A program made the translations under genes and the position numbers. Positions 6,640 through 40,708 of a stretch of 44,883 bases of DNA are shown in pieces. The stretch is taken from the sequence record ON210144.1; one strand, 5' to 3'. The stretch is from Escherichia phage EEc2. The notes under the pieces are model-generated. The model did no database searches, was not told where the DNA came from, and saw only the letters and a list, made by a program, of their open reading frames with translations. Positions within the stretch are counted from its first letter, which is position 1. Each line of letters opens with the position of its first letter.

Positions 6640-8627
6640 TGGCTATTATTAATAACATCCCGTGCCCTGCCTGCCAGAAGAATGGGCACGATAAATCAGG
6701 CAATCATCTCATGATATTTGATGATGGTGCTGGCTATTGTAACCGTGGTCACTTTCATGATAATGGTAGACCCTACTATCATAAGCCAGAGGGAGGCATC
6801 GAGATAACCGAGTTGCCTATTACTGGCAATATCAAATATACACCTTCTCAATTCAAAGAAATGGAGAAGGAAGGGAAGATAAGCGACCCTAAATTACGTG
6901 CCATCGCACTAGGTGGTATGCGTATGAAAGACCGTTGGGAGGTCATGAATGAGCAAGAAAGGGCAGACCAAGGAGCAGAGTGGAAACTTGATGTTGAATG
7001 GTTCCTCACGCTTAAGCGTAAGAACCTTGTTTCCCGACACATTCGCGGCGACATTTGCGCATTGTATGATGTACGTGTCGGACACGATGAAGAGGGTAGA
7101 GTCTCGCGGCATTACTATCCACGCTTCGAGAAAGGTGAGCTAGTAGGAGCTAAGTGTCGTACCTTACCTAAAGATTTCAAGTTTGGACACTTAGGTAAAC
7201 TCTTTGGTATGCAAGATCTTTTCGGTATGAATACTTTGTCTCACGTGTTAGACAAGGGGAGACGAAAGGATTGCTTGCTTATTGTAGGCGGTGAACTTGA
7301 TGCACTAGCAGCGCAGCAGATGCTCCTTGATTCTGCCAAAGGTACTAAGTGGGAAGGTCAGCCATACCATGTATGGTCTGTCAATAAAGGTGAGTCTTGC
7401 CTTGAAGAGATAGTGCAAAACCGTGAGCACATAGCCCAATTCAAGAAGATTATATGGGGCTTTGATGGCGACGAGGTGGGGCAGAAGCAGAACCAACAAG
7501 CTGCTCGCCTGTTTCCTGGCAAATCCTACATCCTCGAATATCCATCTGGTTGCAAAGATGCTAACAAGGCATTGATGGCTGGCAAGGCTAAAGAGTTTGT
7601 AGATGCATGGTTTAATGCCAAGTCATCTGATGAAGTCTTTGGTAGCCAGATTAAATCTATCGCATCTCAAAGGGATAAGCTCAAGGCTGCACGTCCAGAG
7701 CAAGGACTATCATGGCCTTGGCCTAAGCTGAACAAGGTAACGCTAGGTATTCGTAAGAACCAACTTATCATTGTAGGCGCAGGCTCTGGTGTAGGTAAGA
7801 CTGAGTTCCTTCGTGAAGTAGTTAAGCACCTCATTGAAGAACACGGTGAATCTGTAGGCATCATTTCTACAGAAGACCCGATGGTCAAGGTGTCCCGTGC
7901 TTTTATCGGCAAGTGGATTGATAAGCGTATTGAGTTACCGCCAACCAACGACCCGAAAGAAGATGGATACCGTGAGGTGTTCGACTACACCGAGGAAGAG
8001 GCTAACGCCGCCATTGATTATGTAGCTGATACAGGTAAGCTGTTTGTAGCTGACCTAGAGGGTGACTATTCGATGGAAAAGGTAGAGCAAACTTGCCTAG
8101 AGTTTGAGGCTATGGGCATTTCTAATATCATCATTGATAACTTAACGGGGATTAAATTAGATGAGCGTGCTTTTGGTGGGAAGGTTGGTGCACTTGATGA
8201 ATGCGTCAAGCGGATTGGTACTATCAAAGACCGACACCCGGTTACTATATTCCTTGTATCACACCTTACACGTCCTCCGGCAAACCGTACCCAACACGAA
8301 GAAGGTGGCGAGGTTATCCTTTCTGACTTCCGAGGTTCAGGCGCTATCGGATTCTGGGCATCTTACGCCTTGGGGATTGAGCGTAATACAAGAGCTGAAA
8401 CGCTTGATGAACGGACTACCACGTACATCTCATGTGTCAAAGACCGCGACCAAGGTATCTACACTGGAACCAAGGTCATGCTTAAGGGTGACATTCAAAC
8501 CGGACGTTTAATGGAACCACAAGCCCGTACTAAGTCATTTGATACAGGTGAAGCAAGGCAACAAGAAGTGCCGGATTTACCGGACACTATAGAAGAGACA
8601 ACTTTTGACGATGAACAGGAGTTTTAA
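6639..8627 (+). CDS. DNA primase/helicase (T7 gp4-like), 662 aa
   Basis: N-terminal Cys4 zinc ribbon CPACQ...CNRGH, Walker A GAGSGVGKTEF, acidic C-terminus ending DDEQEF. Confidence 0.95.
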   Translation: MAIINNIPCPACQKNGHDKSGNHLMIFDDGAGYCNRGHFHDNGRPYYHKPEGGIEITELPITGNIKYTPSQFKEMEKEGKISDPKLRAIALGGMRMKDRWEVMNEQERADQGAEWKLDVEWFLTLKRKNLVSRHIRGDICALYDVRVGHDEEGRVSRHYYPRFEKGELVGAKCRTLPKDFKFGHLGKLFGMQDLFGMNTLSHVLDKGRRKDCLLIVGGELDALAAQQMLLDSAKGTKWEGQPYHVWSVNKGESCLEEIVQNREHIAQFKKIIWGFDGDEVGQKQNQQAARLFPGKSYILEYPSGCKDANKALMAGKAKEFVDAWFNAKSSDEVFGSQIKSIASQRDKLKAARPEQGLSWPWPKLNKVTLGIRKNQLIIVGAGSGVGKTEFLREVVKHLIEEHGESVGIISTEDPMVKVSRAFIGKWIDKRIELPPTNDPKEDGYREVFDYTEEEANAAIDYVADTGKLFVADLEGDYSMEKVEQTCLEFEAMGISNIIIDNLTGIKLDERAFGGKVGALDECVKRIGTIKDRHPVTIFLVSHLTRPPANRTQHEEGGEVILSDFRGSGAIGFWASYALGIERNTRAETLDERTTTYISCVKDRDQGIYTGTKVMLKGDIQTGRLMEPQARTKSFDTGEARQQEVPDLPDTIEETTFDDEQEF

Positions 8628-9949: not shown

Positions 9950-9965
9950 GTCTCACGTGTGAGAC
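9950..9965 (+). repeat. Conserved palindrome GTCTCACGTGTGAGAC, copy d
   Basis: Perfect 16-bp inverted repeat (extendable to GGTTGTCTCACGTGTGAGACAGCC) followed by TTTTAT. Confidence 0.85.
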
Positions 9966-13124: not shown

Positions 13125-13145
13125 ATTTACTGGACACTATAGAAG
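13125..13145 (+). promoter_or_regulatory. Phage promoter P4 (ATTTACTGGACACTATAGAAG)
   Basis: Exact consensus; predicted +1 G at 13142. Confidence 0.85.
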
Positions 13146-13211: not shown

Positions 13212-13589
13212 ATGTCTATGGTAACTACTCTGGTATTTGTAGCTCAATACTTTCGTGGTCTGGCTAATAAGTTCAAGTCCAAGGCTATCAAAGCTATTGA
13301 GTCTCGCATCGAGGCAGTACAGGCAGAGCAAGTTAAAGTTGAAGAACATCGTAGTTCTCAAATGATTGACTGCCATAACCGCTACTATGCATCTCGTGAT
13401 GACCTTAATGCACGCCAAGTCAAAGAGGTTGAAGAGATGCTGGCACGTCACCAGCAAGAGCGCGACAGTCTGAAAGCTGAATTTGAAGAGAACAAGGCAT
13501 CCATCGCCCTTGTACATCAAGCCGCATCTGACAGCCTGAAGAAAGAGATTGTTATGCTGGAAATTGAGTTAGATAACCTGACCAAATAA
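13212..13589 (+). CDS. Hypothetical membrane-anchored coiled-coil protein (125 aa)
   Basis: TAGGAG SD; N-terminal hydrophobic segment VTTLVFVAQYF, remainder charged and heptad-like. Confidence 0.6.
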   Translation: MSMVTTLVFVAQYFRGLANKFKSKAIKAIESRIEAVQAEQVKVEEHRSSQMIDCHNRYYASRDDLNARQVKEVEEMLARHQQERDSLKAEFEENKASIALVHQAASDSLKKEIVMLEIELDNLTK

Positions 13590-13751: not shown

Positions 13752-14558
13752 ATGGCACGTGGTGATTTTGATTTTGGTGCTCAGGTTACTAAGGCTGAAG
13801 GTAAAGTATTTAAGAACCCTGAAGTTGGTGATCATGAAGCAGTAATCTCTGGCATCATTCATGTTGGTTCCTTCCAAGATATTTTTAAGAAAGGTAATAC
13901 CACTGAGGTTAAGAAGCCAGCAAACTTTGTTCTTGTTAAGATTATCCTGATGGGTGACGACGACAAGAATGAAGATGATTCTCGCATGGAACAGTGGATG
14001 GCTGTGCCTCTGAAGTCTGGTGACAAGGCAACCTTGACTAAGTTCCTGAATGCAGTTGACCCTAAAGAGCTGCTTGGTGGTTTCGATGACTTCATCGGTG
14101 AATGCCTGACTGCAACTATGGTTGGCTCTGGCGACAAGAATGATGATGGTACTTTCAAGTATGTTAACTGGAAAGGCTTTGGCGGTATGCCTGATAAGTT
14201 GAAGAAGCTTGTACTGGCTCAGGTAGAAGAGGAAGGTCTGTCTATGACAGGTCATATCACCTTCGACAAGCTGACCAAAGAAATCCTTGATGACATCCCA
14301 GCTAACTTGGTGCGTCAATACTTCCTTAATGAAACACCTCGTGGTAAGAACCTGTCTGTTGCTGGTTCTCACGTAGAAGCAATCATTAAAGCTGCTCGTG
14401 AAGAAGACCCAGAGTGGAAGAAAGCCAAGAAGAAAGATGACGAGGATGCTACTCCAGCTAATCGTAAATCTCTGGATACTGGTGAGTCTGTTCCACAGGA
14501 AGTACCTGAAGCAGAAGATACTCCTGCACCGGAGATGGATGAGGACGCGGAATATTAA
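13752..14558 (+). CDS. Putative single-stranded DNA-binding protein (T7 gp2.5-like), 268 aa
   Basis: AGGAG SD; beta-rich core with DKNDDGTFKYVNWK resembling the T7 gp2.5 NGDGTTTFKFK segment as I recall it; acidic tail ending EMDEDAEY. Confidence 0.5.
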   Translation: MARGDFDFGAQVTKAEGKVFKNPEVGDHEAVISGIIHVGSFQDIFKKGNTTEVKKPANFVLVKIILMGDDDKNEDDSRMEQWMAVPLKSGDKATLTKFLNAVDPKELLGGFDDFIGECLTATMVGSGDKNDDGTFKYVNWKGFGGMPDKLKKLVLAQVEEEGLSMTGHITFDKLTKEILDDIPANLVRQYFLNETPRGKNLSVAGSHVEAIIKAAREEDPEWKKAKKKDDEDATPANRKSLDTGESVPQEVPEAEDTPAPEMDEDAEY

Positions 14559-14787: not shown

Positions 14788-14803
14788 GTCTCACGTGTGA
14801 GAC
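14788..14803 (+). repeat. Conserved palindrome GTCTCACGTGTGAGAC, copy e
   Basis: Perfect 16-bp inverted repeat 2 nt after the 14568..14786 stop and 15 nt upstream of promoter P6. Confidence 0.85.
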
Positions 14804-14818
14804 AAATAGGTGTCCGGT

Positions 14819-14839
14819 ATTTACTGGACACTATAGAAG
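14819..14839 (+). promoter_or_regulatory. Phage promoter P6 (ATTTACTGGACACTATAGAAG)
   Basis: Exact consensus; +1 G at 14836. Confidence 0.85.
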
Positions 14840-14891
14840 AGAAGAATTTTAATCGGCGATAATGCCATAACCAACAAAAGGAGAATTTAAT

Positions 14892-15263
14892 ATGTTCAAG
14901 ATTGAAACTATCGTAAACCGTGTTGTTAAAGGTGCTGCTCTGGTATCCGTTGAGTCTTTCATTATCGTCGATGAAGCTGATCAACTGGTAGCTGGTACTA
15001 AGGCTTACGATACCCGTGAAGAAGCTCAGGCTAAGATTGACAGCATGGGTAACTTCGCTGCTGGTCTGGAGTTCGCTCGTGCTTGCTTCCCTGAGCAGGC
15101 TGACAAAGCTCAGATTGGTAAGGCTAATATCGTAGCTGAATATCTGGATTGGGTTGCTGCTGGTAAACCAGTGAAAGAAGTTAAGGCTGCTGAAGAAGCT
15201 GAAGCTCCAGCAGAAGAAGTAGCTGCACCGGAAACTCCGGTAAGCGAAGAGGAAGAATTTTGA
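14892..15263 (+). CDS. Hypothetical acidic protein (123 aa) with C-terminal SEEEEF tail
   Basis: Strong SD AAAGGAGAA; bracketed by promoter P6 and terminator T1; Ala/Glu/Lys-rich with an acidic C-terminus ending in Phe. Confidence 0.65.
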   Translation: MFKIETIVNRVVKGAALVSVESFIIVDEADQLVAGTKAYDTREEAQAKIDSMGNFAAGLEFARACFPEQADKAQIGKANIVAEYLDWVAAGKPVKEVKAAEEAEAPAEEVAAPETPVSEEEEF

Positions 15264-15322
15264 TAATAGCAGGTGTTGCCTCTGTTAGTCCTGGTTGACT
15301 ATCACGCTCACCTCATCTAATG

Positions 15323-15354
15323 CCCTGTCTGCCTTAGTGTAGGCAGGGTCTTTT
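15323..15354 (+). terminator. Hairpin plus U-run terminator T1
   Basis: Stem CCCTGTCTGC / GTAGGCAGGG (about 10 bp with G-U pairs), CTTAGT in the loop, then TCTTTTG; near-identical in design to T2. Confidence 0.65.
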
Positions 15355-15380
15355 GCGTAATAGTTATTGGAGAATGAATT

Positions 15381-15677
15381 ATGCCGACTATTGAATCTCG
15401 TTTACGCGCTGACTATAATAGATACTTTAGCCGCTTACATAGGGATTATATGACACACGTTACAGTATGGTTAGATGGTGAGATATTCTTAGTGTATGAG
15501 TATTTACATGATACGGATGACCGCTATGACCCTAGTTCCCTCCAAGTAGCAAAGTCTATTGTAGAGCACATCTTGAAGGAGTGGCCTACATGCGACCAAA
15601 CTTCGACTTCGGAGCTACAGTATCGGAAGACAATAACCTGTTGCTGTGGCCAACTGAAGGTAATAGAATCGCTTTAA
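15381..15677 (+). CDS. Hypothetical protein (98 aa)
   Basis: GGAG SD; C-terminal 29 codons overlap the exonuclease gene in another frame, so the true 3' end is uncertain. Confidence 0.4.
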   Translation: MPTIESRLRADYNRYFSRLHRDYMTHVTVWLDGEIFLVYEYLHDTDDRYDPSSLQVAKSIVEHILKEWPTCDQTSTSELQYRKTITCCCGQLKVIESL

Positions 15678-18113: not shown

Positions 18114-18617
18114 ATGTCACACTATGAATGTAAGAAGTGTCATAAGCGTTATGATTACTGTACTTGTGGTCAAGAGAAAACATCTTTTAAAGTTGGAGAC
18201 AAGGTATTTCGTAATGAAAAAGATTCGATTCCTTGGAATCAATTCTGCAAAGAAGCTGGTATTGACCCTGATAGCCCTGTAACCATAGATGATATTGATG
18301 GCATTAACTTGTGCTTTCGTGAGGTGAGGGGTACAGGTTGGGATTCCAAAAAATTCAAACTTGCATCTGATAAGTTAGACAACAATATGGTTACTAAGCC
18401 TAAGCACTACGAGTTCTTCGATGGGGTAGAGGCAATCACTATCATTGCTCGTAGTATGACCGAGAAGCAATTCGCTGGCTATTGCATGGGTAATGCTTTG
18501 AAATATCGTCTGCGCGCAGGTAAGAAGTTCAACACTGAAGAAGACCTGAAGAAAGCAGACTACTACAAAGAGCTATTCCAGAAGCATCGTCACGAATGTA
18601 TTGATGAGGATATTTGA
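18114..18617 (+). CDS. Hypothetical protein with N-terminal Cys-rich zinc-ribbon-like motif (167 aa)
   Basis: ATG 18114 with GGAGGA upstream; YECKKCHKRYDYCTCG; conserved-looking block MTEKQFAGYCMGNALKYRLRAGKK. Confidence 0.6.
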   Translation: MSHYECKKCHKRYDYCTCGQEKTSFKVGDKVFRNEKDSIPWNQFCKEAGIDPDSPVTIDDIDGINLCFREVRGTGWDSKKFKLASDKLDNNMVTKPKHYEFFDGVEAITIIARSMTEKQFAGYCMGNALKYRLRAGKKFNTEEDLKKADYYKELFQKHRHECIDEDI

Positions 18618-18618
18618 T

Positions 18619-19566
18619 ATGAATATCTTTGAGTTCCTAGGTCTTCCAGAAGATCACCGCAATCACCCATTCATGCTGGTGAAGCATCGCGGTGAAGTCC
18701 CTGAGAAGAAATTAACTTTTCCATGTTATGCACAGGTGAAACGAGATGGAATATTCAGTGCTGTTGTGGTGCGCAATGATGGTGCTGTTGCCATCTTTGG
18801 TCGTACTGGTAAGAAGCTCGCAAATGTTGAATCCTTGGAAAAGACATTTAGTGTATTTCCTGTCGGGTTGTATCTTGGTGAGTTGCAATCTATGGCTGTT
18901 GATGTTTATCTTGAAGCTCTGTCAGGAGTGGTAAACCCTAATCGTACAGAGCCACTTGACTTCATAGGCCAGCAGATTAAAGACAACCTGTATATCGACT
19001 TCTTCGATATGTTAACTATTAAGGCATTCCATGATGGATTCACTGATGTTTCTTATCTCAAACGTTACGATGCTTTACATCGTCGTATCGGCGCTCATCT
19101 TAGCGGGTGCAACGCTATCCTTCCTATCACTCCTTGCCATAATGAGCGAGAAGTTGAAGCGTTTGCGCAAGAGCAAATAGATGCAGGCCGAGAAGGTGCG
19201 GTATTTAAACTTGACGTGGAGTACGAAAGTGGGCACAAGGGCTATCGTCAAACGAAGATCGTTCGTATGGTATCTTATGACCTCACCTGCATTGGGTGGG
19301 AGGAAGGAAAAGGTAAGTATAAAGGTAAAGTAGCTAATTTAATCTTTAAATGGAAAGGTGGTAAGTCCGTTAAGGCTATGCTGGGGCGTGGCTGGTCACA
19401 TGAGGATGCAGCACAGATGTATCACGATATTAAACACGGTGGCGAACTAAACGTCATTGGGAAAATCTTCGCTGTTAAGGCGTTACAGGAATCTAGTAAG
19501 GGAGTCCTGAGACTTCCCAAGGTTTCTGAACTTAGGTTTGATAAGGAAGCCCCTGATGTCTTCTAA
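18619..19566 (+). CDS. ATP-dependent DNA ligase (T7 gp1.3-like)
   Basis: Adenylation motif I (KxDG) as QVKRDGIF and motif IV as EGAVFK; ATG 18619 with GAGGA upstream. Confidence 0.85.
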   Translation: MNIFEFLGLPEDHRNHPFMLVKHRGEVPEKKLTFPCYAQVKRDGIFSAVVVRNDGAVAIFGRTGKKLANVESLEKTFSVFPVGLYLGELQSMAVDVYLEALSGVVNPNRTEPLDFIGQQIKDNLYIDFFDMLTIKAFHDGFTDVSYLKRYDALHRRIGAHLSGCNAILPITPCHNEREVEAFAQEQIDAGREGAVFKLDVEYESGHKGYRQTKIVRMVSYDLTCIGWEEGKGKYKGKVANLIFKWKGGKSVKAMLGRGWSHEDAAQMYHDIKHGGELNVIGKIFAVKALQESSKGVLRLPKVSELRFDKEAPDVF

Positions 19567-21003: not shown

Positions 21004-22554
21004 ATGAAACAGAGCACAGATTTGGAGTATGGAGGTAAGCGGTCTAAGATACCTAAGCTATGGGAGAAATTCTCCACTAAACGTAGCTCTTTCCTTGATA
21101 GGGCGAAGCATTACTCCAAATTAACCTTGCCCTATCTGATGAATGACAAAGGTGATAACGAGACTTCGCAGAATGGATGGCAAGGTGTAGGTGCTCAGGC
21201 AACCAACCATCTAGCCAATAAGCTAGCGCAAGTACTATTCCCTGCACAGCGTTCCTTCTTCCGTGTAGACTTAACTGCACAAGGTGAGAAGGTTCTTAAT
21301 CAGCGTGGCCTGAAGAAGACAGAGCTAGCTACCATCTTCGCTCAAGTGGAAACACGGGCAATGAAAGAGTTAGAGCAACGTCAATTCCGGCCTGCTGTAG
21401 TAGAAGCATTTAAGCATCTTATTGTTGCTGGCAGCTGTATGCTATACAAGCCGAGCAAAGGTGCAATCAGTGCTATCCCGATGCATCACTACGTAGTTAA
21501 CCGTGATACCAATGGCGACCTGTTAGACATTATCTTGCTACAAGAGAAAGCCTTACGTACCTTTGACCCAGCTACACGTGCTGTAGTAGAGGTTGGCCTG
21601 AAAGGTAAGAAGTGCAAAGAAGATGACAGCGTTAAGCTGTACACACATGCTAAGTATCTTGGTGATGGATTTTGGGAACTCAAGCAATCTGCTGATGATA
21701 TCCCTGTGGGTAAGGTGAGTAAAATCAAATCAGAAAAGCTACCTTTCATCCCATTAACTTGGAAGCGAAGCTATGGTGAGGATTGGGGTCGCCCTCTTGC
21801 AGAGGATTACTCCGGTGATTTATTCGTTATCCAATTCTTATCTGAAGCGGTTGCCCGTGGTGCTGCGCTGATGGCAGATATCAAGTACCTGATTCGTCCG
21901 GGTGCTCAAACTGATGTTGACCACTTTGTTAACTCTGGCACTGGTGAGGTTATCACTGGTGTAGAAGAAGACATCCATATTGTACAGTTAGGTAAGTATG
22001 CAGACCTCACACCTATTAGCGCGGTTCTAGAGGTATACACTCGCCGTATCGGTGTTGTCTTCATGATGGAGACAATGACACGCCGTGACGCCGAACGTGT
22101 TACTGCTGTAGAAATCCAGCGAGATGCGTTAGAGATTGAGCAGAACATGGGTGGTGTATACTCCCTCTTTGCTACTACTATGCAATCGCCAGTAGCGATG
22201 TGGGGTCTGCTGGAGGCAGGGGAGTCCTTCACTAGTGACCTAGTGGACCCTGTGATTATCACAGGTATTGAAGCTTTAGGACGCATGGCTGAGTTGGATA
22301 AACTGGCTAACTTTGCTCAGTATATGTCACTGCCATTACAATGGCCTGAGCCTGTCCTAGCTGCTGTGAAATGGCCTGACTATATGGATTGGGTGCGTGG
22401 TCAAATCTCTGCTGAACTGCCGTTCCTTAAATCAGCTGAAGAGATGGCACAAGAACAGGAAGCACAGATGCAAGCACAGCAAGCACAGATGCTTGAAGAA
22501 GGTGTGGCTAAGGCCGTGCCGGGTGTAATTCAACAAGAACTTAAGGAGGCGTAA
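21004..22554 (+). CDS. Portal (head-to-tail connector) protein, T7 gp8-like
   Basis: WQGVGAQATNHLANKLAQVLFPAQRSFFRVDL parallels the T7 gp8 N-terminal block as I recall it; 516 aa, correct synteny. Confidence 0.9.
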   Translation: MKQSTDLEYGGKRSKIPKLWEKFSTKRSSFLDRAKHYSKLTLPYLMNDKGDNETSQNGWQGVGAQATNHLANKLAQVLFPAQRSFFRVDLTAQGEKVLNQRGLKKTELATIFAQVETRAMKELEQRQFRPAVVEAFKHLIVAGSCMLYKPSKGAISAIPMHHYVVNRDTNGDLLDIILLQEKALRTFDPATRAVVEVGLKGKKCKEDDSVKLYTHAKYLGDGFWELKQSADDIPVGKVSKIKSEKLPFIPLTWKRSYGEDWGRPLAEDYSGDLFVIQFLSEAVARGAALMADIKYLIRPGAQTDVDHFVNSGTGEVITGVEEDIHIVQLGKYADLTPISAVLEVYTRRIGVVFMMETMTRRDAERVTAVEIQRDALEIEQNMGGVYSLFATTMQSPVAMWGLLEAGESFTSDLVDPVIITGIEALGRMAELDKLANFAQYMSLPLQWPEPVLAAVKWPDYMDWVRGQISAELPFLKSAEEMAQEQEAQMQAQQAQMLEEGVAKAVPGVIQQELKEA

Positions 22555-23474
22555 TGTCTTTCTCATTTACTGAACCGTCAACCACTCACCCTACTACTGA
22601 AGAGGGTCCGGTAGAAACCAAGGAGGTAACAACTGATGCTGCTACTACTGATGCTACTGCTGACGCTGGCACTGCTGTACAAGATGACAATGCTGGTGCA
22701 CAACCTACTGAAGACACCGGAGGAGAAGCTTCTGGACAGCCTTCAGAAAAAGGAGACAATGGCGGAGAGAATGGTGAATCTAAGCCAGATGATACCGCGA
22801 CCGACACTGAGGAAGTGCAATACTTCTTCGGAGAACATGAAGTAACAATAGACATCCCACAGGATGTAACTGACAGCCTTAAAGAGAAAGGCATTGATGC
22901 CAAGCAGGTTGCCAAGGAACTATATTCCAAAGGTGGCAAGTTTGAACTGTCAGATGCAACCAAGCAGAAATTGTATGATGCTTTTGGCAAGTTTGCGGTA
23001 GATGCTTACCTGTCAGGTCTTAAGGCTCAAAATGAAGCCTTCTTCCTGAAAGAAGCCAACGCAGCTAAAGAGTTGGAAGCAGCTAACACCCAACGCTTCT
23101 CTGATGTTTCTAAGGAAATTGGTGGCGAAGAAGGTTGGTCCCGTCTTGAGGAGTGGGCGCTTGAAACGCTATCCGATGACGAACTCACGGCATTCAATGC
23201 TGTGATGGAGTCTGGCAACCAGTACCTCCAGCAGTACGCTGTGCGTGAACTGGAGAGCCGCCGTAAGGCTGCACAGGGTGATGATAGGCCATCCCTGATT
23301 GAGCCATCAGCACCTGCTAAGGCTAATGAAGAGAATGGCCCACTGACGCGAGATCAGTACGTTCAAGCAATCGCAACTCTTAGCCAGAAGTACGGCAATG
23401 ACCGTAAAGCTATGGCAGAAGCTCAGGCTAAACTGGACGCCCGTCGCCGTGCTGGCATGGCTCGCGGTATCTAA
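22554..23474 (+). CDS. Capsid scaffolding protein (gp9-like)
   Basis: Acidic, low-complexity, helical 306-aa protein between portal and capsid; start overlaps the portal stop. Confidence 0.6.
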   Translation: MSFSFTEPSTTHPTTEEGPVETKEVTTDAATTDATADAGTAVQDDNAGAQPTEDTGGEASGQPSEKGDNGGENGESKPDDTATDTEEVQYFFGEHEVTIDIPQDVTDSLKEKGIDAKQVAKELYSKGGKFELSDATKQKLYDAFGKFAVDAYLSGLKAQNEAFFLKEANAAKELEAANTQRFSDVSKEIGGEEGWSRLEEWALETLSDDELTAFNAVMESGNQYLQQYAVRELESRRKAAQGDDRPSLIEPSAPAKANEENGPLTRDQYVQAIATLSQKYGNDRKAMAEAQAKLDARRRAGMARGI

Positions 23475-24762: not shown

Positions 24763-24770
24763 CACCTATG

Positions 24771-24804
24771 CCCTATCTACCTTGCGTAGGTAGGGTTCTT
24801 TTTG
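24771..24804 (+). terminator. Hairpin plus U-run terminator T2 after the capsid gene
   Basis: 10-bp stem CCCTATCTAC / GTAGGTAGGG (one G-U), loop CTTGC, then TTCTTTTTG; 9 nt after the capsid stop, analogous to T7 T-phi. Confidence 0.7.
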
Positions 24805-24816
24805 TTAGGAGGATTC

Positions 24817-38344: not shown

Positions 38345-38365
38345 ATTTACTGGACACTATAGGAG
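38345..38365 (+). promoter_or_regulatory. Phage promoter P10 (ATTTACTGGACACTATAGGAG)
   Basis: 20/21 consensus; +1 G at 38362; 2 nt after the terminase stop, upstream of the paralog cluster. Confidence 0.8.
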
Positions 38366-38789: not shown

Positions 38790-39077
38790 ATGTCTAAGTA
38801 TGGCGATGCAGGTACTACTACTGGTCAGGCTTTTCGTGTAAAAGCAGTACAAACTATTGCAACTGCAATCCCTATGCCTATCGTAGCAGAAGCTGACCTT
38901 AAAAAGAAAGATCATCCTATTAATATTGAACACCTATCTGGTAAGCAGAAAGGTGCTATGGTGGTTGTAGATAAGGGAGATAATAGCCTTTATATTGCTA
39001 TTGCACGTGGTTCTGCACCAACTGACCAGTGGGATGTAACTACTATGGAAGCTGTACCTGTAACACCAGGAGCTTAA
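38790..39077 (+). CDS. Small protein, paralog B of a tandem family (95 aa)
   Basis: AAAAGGAGAAG SD; aligns with A and C across HLSGKQKGAMVVVDKGDNSLYIAIARGSAPTDQWD. Confidence 0.6.
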   Translation: MSKYGDAGTTTGQAFRVKAVQTIATAIPMPIVAEADLKKKDHPINIEHLSGKQKGAMVVVDKGDNSLYIAIARGSAPTDQWDVTTMEAVPVTPGA

Positions 39078-40687: not shown

Positions 40688-40708
40688 ATTTACTGGACAC
40701 TATAGAAG
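40688..40708 (+). promoter_or_regulatory. Phage promoter P11 (ATTTACTGGACACTATAGAAG), tailspike promoter
   Basis: Exact consensus; +1 G at 40705; 82 nt upstream of the tailspike 1 ATG. Confidence 0.85.

Follow-up and report, generated by a model that had tools for sequence, protein, structure and literature searches.

The single-stranded DNA-binding protein (SSB) of E. coli consists of a folded domain, a flexible linker and an acidic-aromatic docking tip (DDDIPF). In bacteriophage T7, the SSB gp2.5 (...EADEDGDF) and the helicase-primase gp4 (...SNDTDF) have acidic tails with a terminal Phe that touch basic patches of the DNA polymerase; in addition, the gene 6 exonuclease is stimulated by the tail of gp2.5 (PMC12339929; PMC4124056). 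These two are the only T7 proteins with an acidic tail and a terminal Phe. The replication machinery of SP6/K1-5-type phages is understood only through analogy with T7, and a recognisable gp2.5 is absent from it. Phages of the SP6, K1-5 and K1E type are known as sources of RNA polymerases and as therapeutic phages. Here we describe gene 18 of Escherichia phage EEc2 (sequence record ON210144.1); the whole analysed stretch of 44,883 nucleotides is called the window below. Judging by its sequence, gene 18 appears to surpass all other non-structural genes of the phage in expression, and its product, gp18, carries an acidic tail with a terminal Phe that resembles the tails of other replication proteins of the same phage.

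The window is a K1-5-like genome of the genus Vectrevirus (Molineuxvirinae, Autographiviridae). Over the 701 bases around gene 18, the identity to Escherichia phage K1-5 and relatives is 99.3-99.7% (99.3% to the DNA of K1-5, where the annotation reads '18'), and all records examined give the gene a number or the name 'hypothetical protein' only. The preliminary description did not recognise the protein. A profile search assigns it over its full length (residues 1-123 of 123, E 7.6e-58) to PHROG 4429, a family of unknown function. There was no match to gp18 in Pfam, NCBIfam or PADLOC, and none among PDB sequences with either the single protein or the family profile as the query. When 1.84 billion cluster representatives were searched exhaustively with the profile, only 28 clusters came up, nearly all of 90-150 aa. 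Two long matches appeared in the representative search: P0143 was rejected as a gp18 fusion, being an unrelated repetitive protein, and P0148 was not counted as one. In the literature we found no assigned function (the gene is listed as 'unknown') and no statement on its codon adaptation, its capsid-type expression unit or a tail shared by three to four proteins; the two founding genome papers may carry earlier remarks on both points. Gene 18 itself is already catalogued.

High expression, which the preliminary description had considered probable, is strongly supported by proxy. We calculated the codon adaptation index (CAI) of 41 genes of the window with the Sharp-Li E. coli weights. Gene 18 is at the top with 0.668; the remaining genes have a mean of 0.310 and a standard deviation of 0.077, which gives z = +4.67. 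The runners-up are gene 16 (0.508), the capsid gene (0.489) and gene 15 (0.473). By the same measure the SSB gene 2.5 comes first in T7, followed by genes 1.1, 10A and 0.3, and because of this ranking we consider that the measure tracks known abundance. T7 gene 2.5 resembles gene 18 here: in either phage, no other non-structural gene is as well codon-adapted. We also used a host-independent test, in which all genes of each of six phages were scored against the codon usage of their own capsid gene (the capsid gene, being the reference, is usually first by construction). The phages were the window and its distant relatives Erwinia phage phiEa100, Vibrio phage AS51, Pseudomonas phage Nerthus, Marinomonas phage CB5A and Shewanella phage phiY2. 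Among the 40-49 genes of each phage the gp18 ortholog takes first or second place, and in all five distant relatives, the capsid gene aside, its codon usage is the most capsid-like. For T7, gene 2.5 again leads this test once the capsid gene is set aside.

The transcription unit of gene 18 is of the kind known from T7 gene 10 (phi10, capsid gene, Tphi): a consensus promoter, a strong ribosome-binding site, a codon-adapted gene and a terminator with a hairpin and a U-run. Unlike the T7 unit, it serves a gene of the middle (replication) region whose product is small and non-structural, and a phage-polymerase terminator such as the one found here is absent from within the T7 class II genes. Nine promoter sites of the SP6/K1-5 type were found in the window, all on the + strand, versus none in shuffled sequences. 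The site before gene 18 (Table 1) had been described as an exact-consensus promoter, and it has no mismatch to the majority consensus of the nine sites; the only other perfect copy is at 40690. It is of the phage-RNA-polymerase type. A sigma-70 promoter at the same position was rejected, as a sigma-70 scan found none there. By analogy with SP6 promoters, the predicted transcription start (+1) is G14836. The strong Shine-Dalgarno sequence claimed for the gene is present at a spacing of 8 nt, and the reading frame is closed by three in-frame stops; a second in-frame stop follows the gp18 ortholog in phiEa100 and AS51 as well.

The terminator claimed downstream of the gene could also be verified. 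Its stem has 11 pairs, six of them GC, and together with the T-run it has the GC-rich hairpin organisation of an intrinsic (Tphi-like) terminator. The 102-nt stretch around it has a folding energy of -33.4 kcal/mol (z -3.0). This terminator is a near-copy of that of the major capsid gene, and the base changes between the two preserve pairing. A hairpin with a T-run lies 3' of the gp18 ortholog in all nine genomes examined. Likewise, the promoter of the gp18 ortholog in the relatives equals or nearly equals the promoter of the capsid gene; in phiEa100 and phiY2 the two are identical over 21-24 nt, and in phiY2 there are two tandem promoters before the gp18 ortholog. The conservation of codon usage, promoter likeness and terminator across the relatives points to high expression as a conserved, selected property. 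An Rfam scan of the whole window found no RNA family.

The unit had also been described as insulated. This is right for the downstream end, where the terminator lies, and not for the upstream end. Nothing with a T-run was found between the promoters at 13127 and 13590 and gene 18, and so transcription from them should add to gene 18's own. The segment 13127-15355 has three promoters within 1.7 kb, ahead of genes 15, 16 and 18, which are three of the four most codon-adapted genes. From the sequence, this segment is a predicted high-expression island within the replication module, closed by a single terminator. Past its end lies gene 19 (15381-15677; 'DNA repair protein' in RefSeq and PHROG 10319), which overlaps the start of the exonuclease gene. 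Gene 19 starts 26 nt past the T-run of the gene 18 terminator and has the lowest CAI of the genome (0.195), so that the predicted expression of the two neighbours is in sharp contrast.

The open reading frame (ORF) of an acidic 123-aa protein ending in EEEEF was confirmed. A structural model (AF2, 25 close homologs) places strands at residues 3-13, 16-26 and 32-35 and two helices at 42-65 and 71-89; the chain is disordered from residue 98. It is of moderate confidence: the predicted local distance difference test (pLDDT) score is about 80 in the core and below 50 from residue 98, and only one of five models was good. The preliminary description of the protein as helical therefore holds for the two helices, and it misses the three strands and the disordered tail. 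The N-terminal domain is highly conserved, with 80 of 95 positions invariant among the 25 close homologs, and the family motif is GKANxVAxYLxW(x3)GKP; family members are 25-77% identical to the window protein. The charge sits mainly in the tail (net -10 for residues 96-123; -3 for the folded core, with a family mean of -2.1 for the core).

The core does not resemble an OB fold of the T7 gp2.5 or bacterial SSB kind. Neither does it carry the dense charge on a folded surface that is typical of DNA mimics such as Ocr and gp5.9, the charge being in the disordered tail. The only significant match of a BFVD structure search is an uncharacterised homolog, and DUF1508 proteins appear there at E ~0.05. 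DUF1508/UPF0339 (PF07411) membership is unsupported by sequence: none of 24 family members matches the Pfam model even at E up to 10, and hhalign against E. coli YegP gives an insignificant probability of 0.2%. Gp18 differs from the YegP domain in the far greater length of its strands, in a second conserved helix and in its tail.

The ending S-x-EEEF, the terminal Phe included, does not vary among 120 close homologs. An acidic-x-F end is seen in about 17 of 24 distant cluster representatives, and the terminal aromatic residue is retained in family members down to 31% identity with the window protein. The invariance of the tip next to a linker that drifts and takes indels argues for a specific contact, and it supports the view of the tail as a functional, conserved motif. 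Gp18 shares its architecture with E. coli SSB, from which it differs in that its tip lacks Ile-Pro and its linker is rich in Ala, Pro and Glu rather than in Gly, Gln and Pro. With T7 gp2.5 and gp4 it shares a disordered acidic stretch, the C-terminal Phe and the location among replication-module proteins. It has no sequence relation to either of them, and its core (95 residues, with three strands and two helices) is not an OB fold, nor is it a helicase.

The likeness of the gp18 tail to those of the helicase-primase (DDEQEF) and of the putative SSB encoded at 13752-14558 (gp16, EMDEDAEY) had been pointed out correctly. Three of the 49 ORFs of the window end in Phe or Tyr with at least four acidic residues among the last eight, namely the helicase-primase, gp16 and gp18, versus 0.025 expected from composition. 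Acidic-aromatic tips of the helicase-primase and gp16 were found in nine genomes (Molineuxvirinae, Colwellvirinae and metagenomes), in some with one or two residues after the aromatic one, and gp18 has such a tip alongside them in eight of the nine. In the order helicase-primase, gp16, gp18, the tips are DDEQEF, EDAEY and EEEEF in the window, DTQEF, EEQEF and EDEEF in AS51, and ETQDF, EGQEF and GDESF in phiY2. The helicase-primase orthologs end in ASEF, TQEF, KETY, SQEF, TQDF, PSTF and EEDFG, and 82 of 86 gp16 homologs end in E-[FY]. In the Nerthus-like lineage residues are added after Phe in both gp16 (EEQEFGE) and gp18 (EEETFE), which hints at a common acceptor. A fourth replication protein with an acid-aromatic C-terminus is the DNA-ligase-like one. 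It ends in D-[FY] in eight of eight genomes checked (the window and those labelled L006-L010, L013 and L014), with PDVF, QPDY, EPDF, TGDF, NADF, IADF, TGDF and TPDY; T7 ligase has no such end. In both the SP6-like lineage and T7 several proteins per phage have the same tail type, three to four of them in the former versus two in the latter. The likeness of the gp18 tail to the tails of the helicase, gp16 and the ligase suggests that gp18 is probably a part of the DNA replication machinery.

The distribution of gp18 agrees with that of its neighbours. In a tblastn search of 50,697 phage records, gp18 was found in 212 records, and gp16 and the full-length polymerase type (coverage of 80% or more) in 215 each; gp18 and gp16 are spread over the genera in nearly the same way. 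Family-A polymerases of all other phages match in the palm region only. The gene order DNA polymerase, gp16, gp18, exonuclease, endonuclease VII is conserved, and the lineage covers at least 11 host genera. Gene 18 is 92% identical to its SP6 ortholog, and the polymerase is 90% identical. From this matching distribution and conserved order, we regard gp18 as a core gene of the lineage's replication module. None of the databases and records examined assigns a function to what is apparently the most expressed non-structural gene of this lineage of 212 records. Homologs of T7 gp2.5, gp2, gp3.5, gp5.5, gp5.7, gp5.9 and gp0.7 were not detectable in the phage.

Our preferred reading, which we hold tentatively, is that gp18 is an abundant accessory protein of replication and recombination whose tail plugs into an acceptor common to the like tails; by T7 precedent, this acceptor would be the polymerase. 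Gene 18 would belong to the middle class and yield a very abundant product. The sequence strongly indicates that the phage RNA polymerase transcribes it from the consensus promoter and additionally from the two promoters just upstream, and the strong Shine-Dalgarno sequence, the best codon adaptation in the genome and the triple stops should make translation efficient. It likewise indicates that the capsid-type terminator ends the transcript, which should leave much less message for the downstream nuclease genes, and that the protein itself is a small folded domain on a flexible acidic Ala/Pro/Glu tether with the conserved ...EEEF-COOH tip. This tip may enter a basic acceptor site that also takes the tails of the helicase-primase, gp16 and the ligase-like protein. 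The site would be on the phage DNA polymerase, as with T7 gp2.5 and gp4, or alternatively gp16 would offer it in its DNA-binding cleft. With the conserved helical face of its N-terminal domain (KANxVAxYLxW), gp18 may grip a second ligand at the fork, which could be nucleic acid or another replication protein. In excess, gp18 could act by mass action, tethering this ligand to the polymerase or competing with the other tails and so tuning their exchange. If the shared ends do mark a common docking site, they would provide a second, independent system for the study of tail competition in a minimal replisome, and SP6-like phages may reveal a new polymerase accessory factor.

The preliminary description had suggested that gp18 may be a third polymerase-docking factor, a view that is partly supported; the docking of the gp18 tail to the polymerase is proposed purely from the T7 precedent. 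In polymerases of the lineage, conserved basic segments occur within inserts specific to the lineage, at the position of the T7 thioredoxin-binding domain and near the equivalent of the front basic patch. By sequence these segments would be compatible with a tail acceptor, no more. A bolder version is that SP6-like phages have a C-terminal [DE]-[FY] 'docking code' on four proteins, with gp18, in vast excess, as a phage-encoded polymerase accessory subunit or a tail-mimic regulator that fills the place of host thioredoxin and gp2.5 in T7 and sets processivity or the exchange of fork partners by competition for the acceptor. We consider this version unlikely.

Several observations weigh against the accessory-protein reading. 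Seven of the 24 distant representatives have no acidic-x-F end (three of them keep Phe followed by one to six residues), and the gp18-like protein of lineage L013, which is shortened, ends in ...KAKLAA without the acidic-F tail yet keeps the core and the downstream hairpin with a T-run. In several phages the gp18 tip (EEEF, EESF) is unlike the xQEF that is common to the helicase and gp16. The polymerase thumb of the lineage is not homologous to the thioredoxin-binding (tail-binding) domain of T7 and cannot be aligned with it, and the fold model of gp18 has no informative structural neighbour. The common phyletic distribution may merely reflect vertical inheritance in one viral lineage. Finally, a pure docking adaptor of a low-copy polymerase does not need top expression, and a stoichiometric or coating role fits better. 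An excess of gp18 over the plausible copy number of the polymerase suggests mass-action competition or coating, and this keeps an SSB-like role and a host-directed role in play.

In its host-directed form, the alternative is that gp18 is a bulk decoy, the acidic tail (or the tail with the core) mimicking DNA or the C-terminus of host SSB and titrating an abundant conserved host protein. The targets proposed are the nucleoid proteins H-NS or HU (as for T7 gp5.5), SSB-interacting nucleases or helicases, RNA polymerase, or a defence sensor. Extreme expression of a small acidic protein without enzyme motifs suits stoichiometric titration of an abundant target, and with no homologs of T7 gp2, gp5.5, gp5.7, gp5.9 and gp0.7 the host-takeover roles are vacant. 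Moreover, gene 18 lies between the polymerase and exonuclease genes, where T7 has 5.5, 5.7 and 5.9. T7 gp5.5, which binds H-NS and tRNA and is reputedly of high abundance, is of similar size (99 aa) and has the same map position; however, there is no sequence similarity, its CAI is low (0.325), as is that of gp5.9, and it ends in ...REVF, with no acidic tail. Gene 18 is a strictly syntenic core gene across at least 11 host genera, whereas anti-defence genes are as a rule early and variable. The tip is of the T7 type (acidic-acidic-F) and not of the host SSB type (D-I-P-F), the tail type is common to the phage's own replication proteins, and the searches of PADLOC, Pfam and NCBIfam gave no match. 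The charge distribution, with a core of only -3, also differs from that of Ocr-type mimics; such a mimic was rejected as a candidate, the folded core being not very acidic and the true Ocr homolog being encoded elsewhere in the genome. We regard the decoy role as doubtful.

A role as an SSB seems improbable to us. Here gp18 would be a small dimeric protein coating single-stranded DNA or RNA, with an SSB-type autoinhibitory and recruiting tail, and the functional counterpart of T7 gp2.5; gp16 would then be an annealase or a second SSB. The T7 gene that combines top codon adaptation with an acidic-F tail is the SSB gene 2.5, gp18 takes that position in six of six SP6-like phages, and no gp2.5 homolog is detectable in the phage. 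The core charge of -3 equals that of the gp2.5 core and therefore does not exclude DNA binding. Dimers of the DUF1508 type have been likened to the PC4/Whirly topology of single-stranded DNA binding (PMC12065111), but the DUF1508 assignment is unsupported by sequence, as described above. Within the family, conservation is lowest in the beta-hairpin that a PC4-like DNA-binding sheet would need, and P0132, P0146 and L013 lack this hairpin; the conserved surface is the helical hairpin, not the sheet. By fold and size, gp16 is the better SSB candidate. Profile comparison revealed no relation between gp16 and T7 gp2.5. Compared with PrgE of plasmid pCF10, an SSB-like OB-fold protein, gp16 is twice as long, with a helical C-terminal half and the acidic-aromatic tail, and has no detectable sequence relation to it.

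It is quite improbable that the tail is a generic solubility element or 'entropic bristle' coincidentally like the replisome tails, with gp18 in some other abundant role (an RNA or translation factor, a regulator of the phage RNA polymerase, an assembly chaperone): the acidic-F end is absent in some family members, no partner is known, the capsid-gene-type promoter and terminator might hint at a late or structural link, and acidic-F ends of small terminases in two relatives indicate that such ends are not exclusive to replication proteins, but the tip is invariant beside the indel-prone linker, the terminal aromatic residue persists at low identity, all genomes place the gene in the replication module rather than the structural one, and three such tails are far from the chance expectation. 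A virion or scaffold role was rejected because of the replication-module location and a separate scaffold gene at 22554-23474.

Irrespective of the role of gp18, the cassette of promoter, ribosome-binding site, gene and terminator is a natural compact high-expression unit for an SP6-type polymerase. The features of the locus and those used for comparison are collected in Table 1.

Table 1. Coordinates of gene 18, its signals and protein parts, and of related features in the window
Feature	Position	Strand	Details
Gene 18 coding sequence	14892-15263	+	123 aa, net charge -13; K1-5 gene 18 (YP_654119), SP6 gene 20
Phage-RNA-polymerase promoter	14819-14841	+	ATTTACTGGACACTATAGAAGAG; SP6/K1-5 type; before gene 18
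Shine-Dalgarno sequence	14878-14883	+	AAGGAG; 8 nt upstream of ATG 14892; read from sequence
Folded N-domain of gp18	14892-15176	+	residues 1-95; predicted three strands and two helices
Linker of gp18	15177-15242	+	residues 96-117; predicted disordered, acidic, Ala/Pro/Glu/Val-rich; variable length, frequent indels (close homologs)
C-terminal tip of gp18	15243-15260	+	S-E-E-E-E-F; last six residues
Triple in-frame stop	15261-15269	+	TGA TAA TAG; read from sequence
Predicted gene 18 terminator	15322-15355	+	GCCCTGTCTGCC-TTAGTG-TAGGCAGGGT, then CTTTTG; hairpin itself 15322-15349
Capsid-gene terminator	24770-24805	+	GCCCTATCTACC-TTGCG-TAGGTAGGGT; paralogous copy, for comparison with the gene 18 terminator
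Upstream phage promoter	13127-13147	+	before gene 15; feeds the gene 18 transcription unit
Upstream phage promoter	13590-13610	+	before gene 16
Helicase-primase tail	8607-8624	+	DDEQEF; coding sequence 6639-8627
Gene 16	13752-14558	+	268-aa OB-fold protein; acidic tail ...EMDEDAEY; candidate SSB
DNA-ligase-like gene	18604-19566	+	product ends ...DKEAPDVF; fourth replication protein with an acid-aromatic C-terminus
Hairpin palindrome	14788-14803	+	GTCTCACGTGTGAGAC; starts 2 nt past the gene 17 stop, ends 15 nt before the gene 18 promoter

Several neighbouring or similar genes deserve mention. Gene 15 (13212-13589), which has its own promoter and the CAI given above, is named 'polysaccharide chain length determinant protein' in the RefSeq entry of K1-5. 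This name, whose only support is a 21-bit match to TIGR03007 (cut-off 279 bits), typical of coiled-coil similarity, probably arose as an annotation artefact. At 1538-1906 the window encodes the homolog of T7 Ocr (gp0.3), which is 66% identical over 110 residues, has a net charge of -20 and ends in ...YSEEEEE. A 95-aa ORF at 38790-39077, after the promoter at 38347, is extremely biased in its codons, with a GC content at third codon positions of 0.17, the lowest effective codon number of the genome (30.3) and the fourth rank in capsid-like codon usage. The small terminases with acidic-F ends are those of Marinomonas phage CB5A (L009, 38574-38921; FDDSEEDF) and Shewanella phage phiY2 (L010, 40131-40478; NDSTEEEF). 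Such an end was not found in the small terminases of phiEa100, AS51, Nerthus and T7, and it was rejected as a conserved feature since it is present in two relatives only.

The palindrome upstream of the gene 18 promoter has no T-run and is thus no clear terminator. It is one of eight copies of GTCTCAC-RT-GTGAGAC in the window (0.1 expected), all on the + strand and mostly intergenic, with 16 nt each, starting at 561, 6039, 6220, 7238, 8806, 9950, 14788 and 31644. The copies at 9950 and 31644 are extended and followed by T-runs. Two copies lie about 20 nt ahead of phage promoters, at 6039 (promoter 6059) and at 14788 (the gene 18 promoter). The arms, with a loop of 2-6 nt, were not found in Marinomonas phage CB5A, Shewanella phage phiY2 or T7; they occur in 4-9 copies in Erwinia phage phiEa100, Vibrio phage AS51, Pseudomonas phage Nerthus and two metagenomic relatives, where the promoters differ. 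In AS51 and Nerthus the palindrome also stands ahead of the promoter of the gp18 gene, and it could be a signal for RNA processing, stability or pausing.

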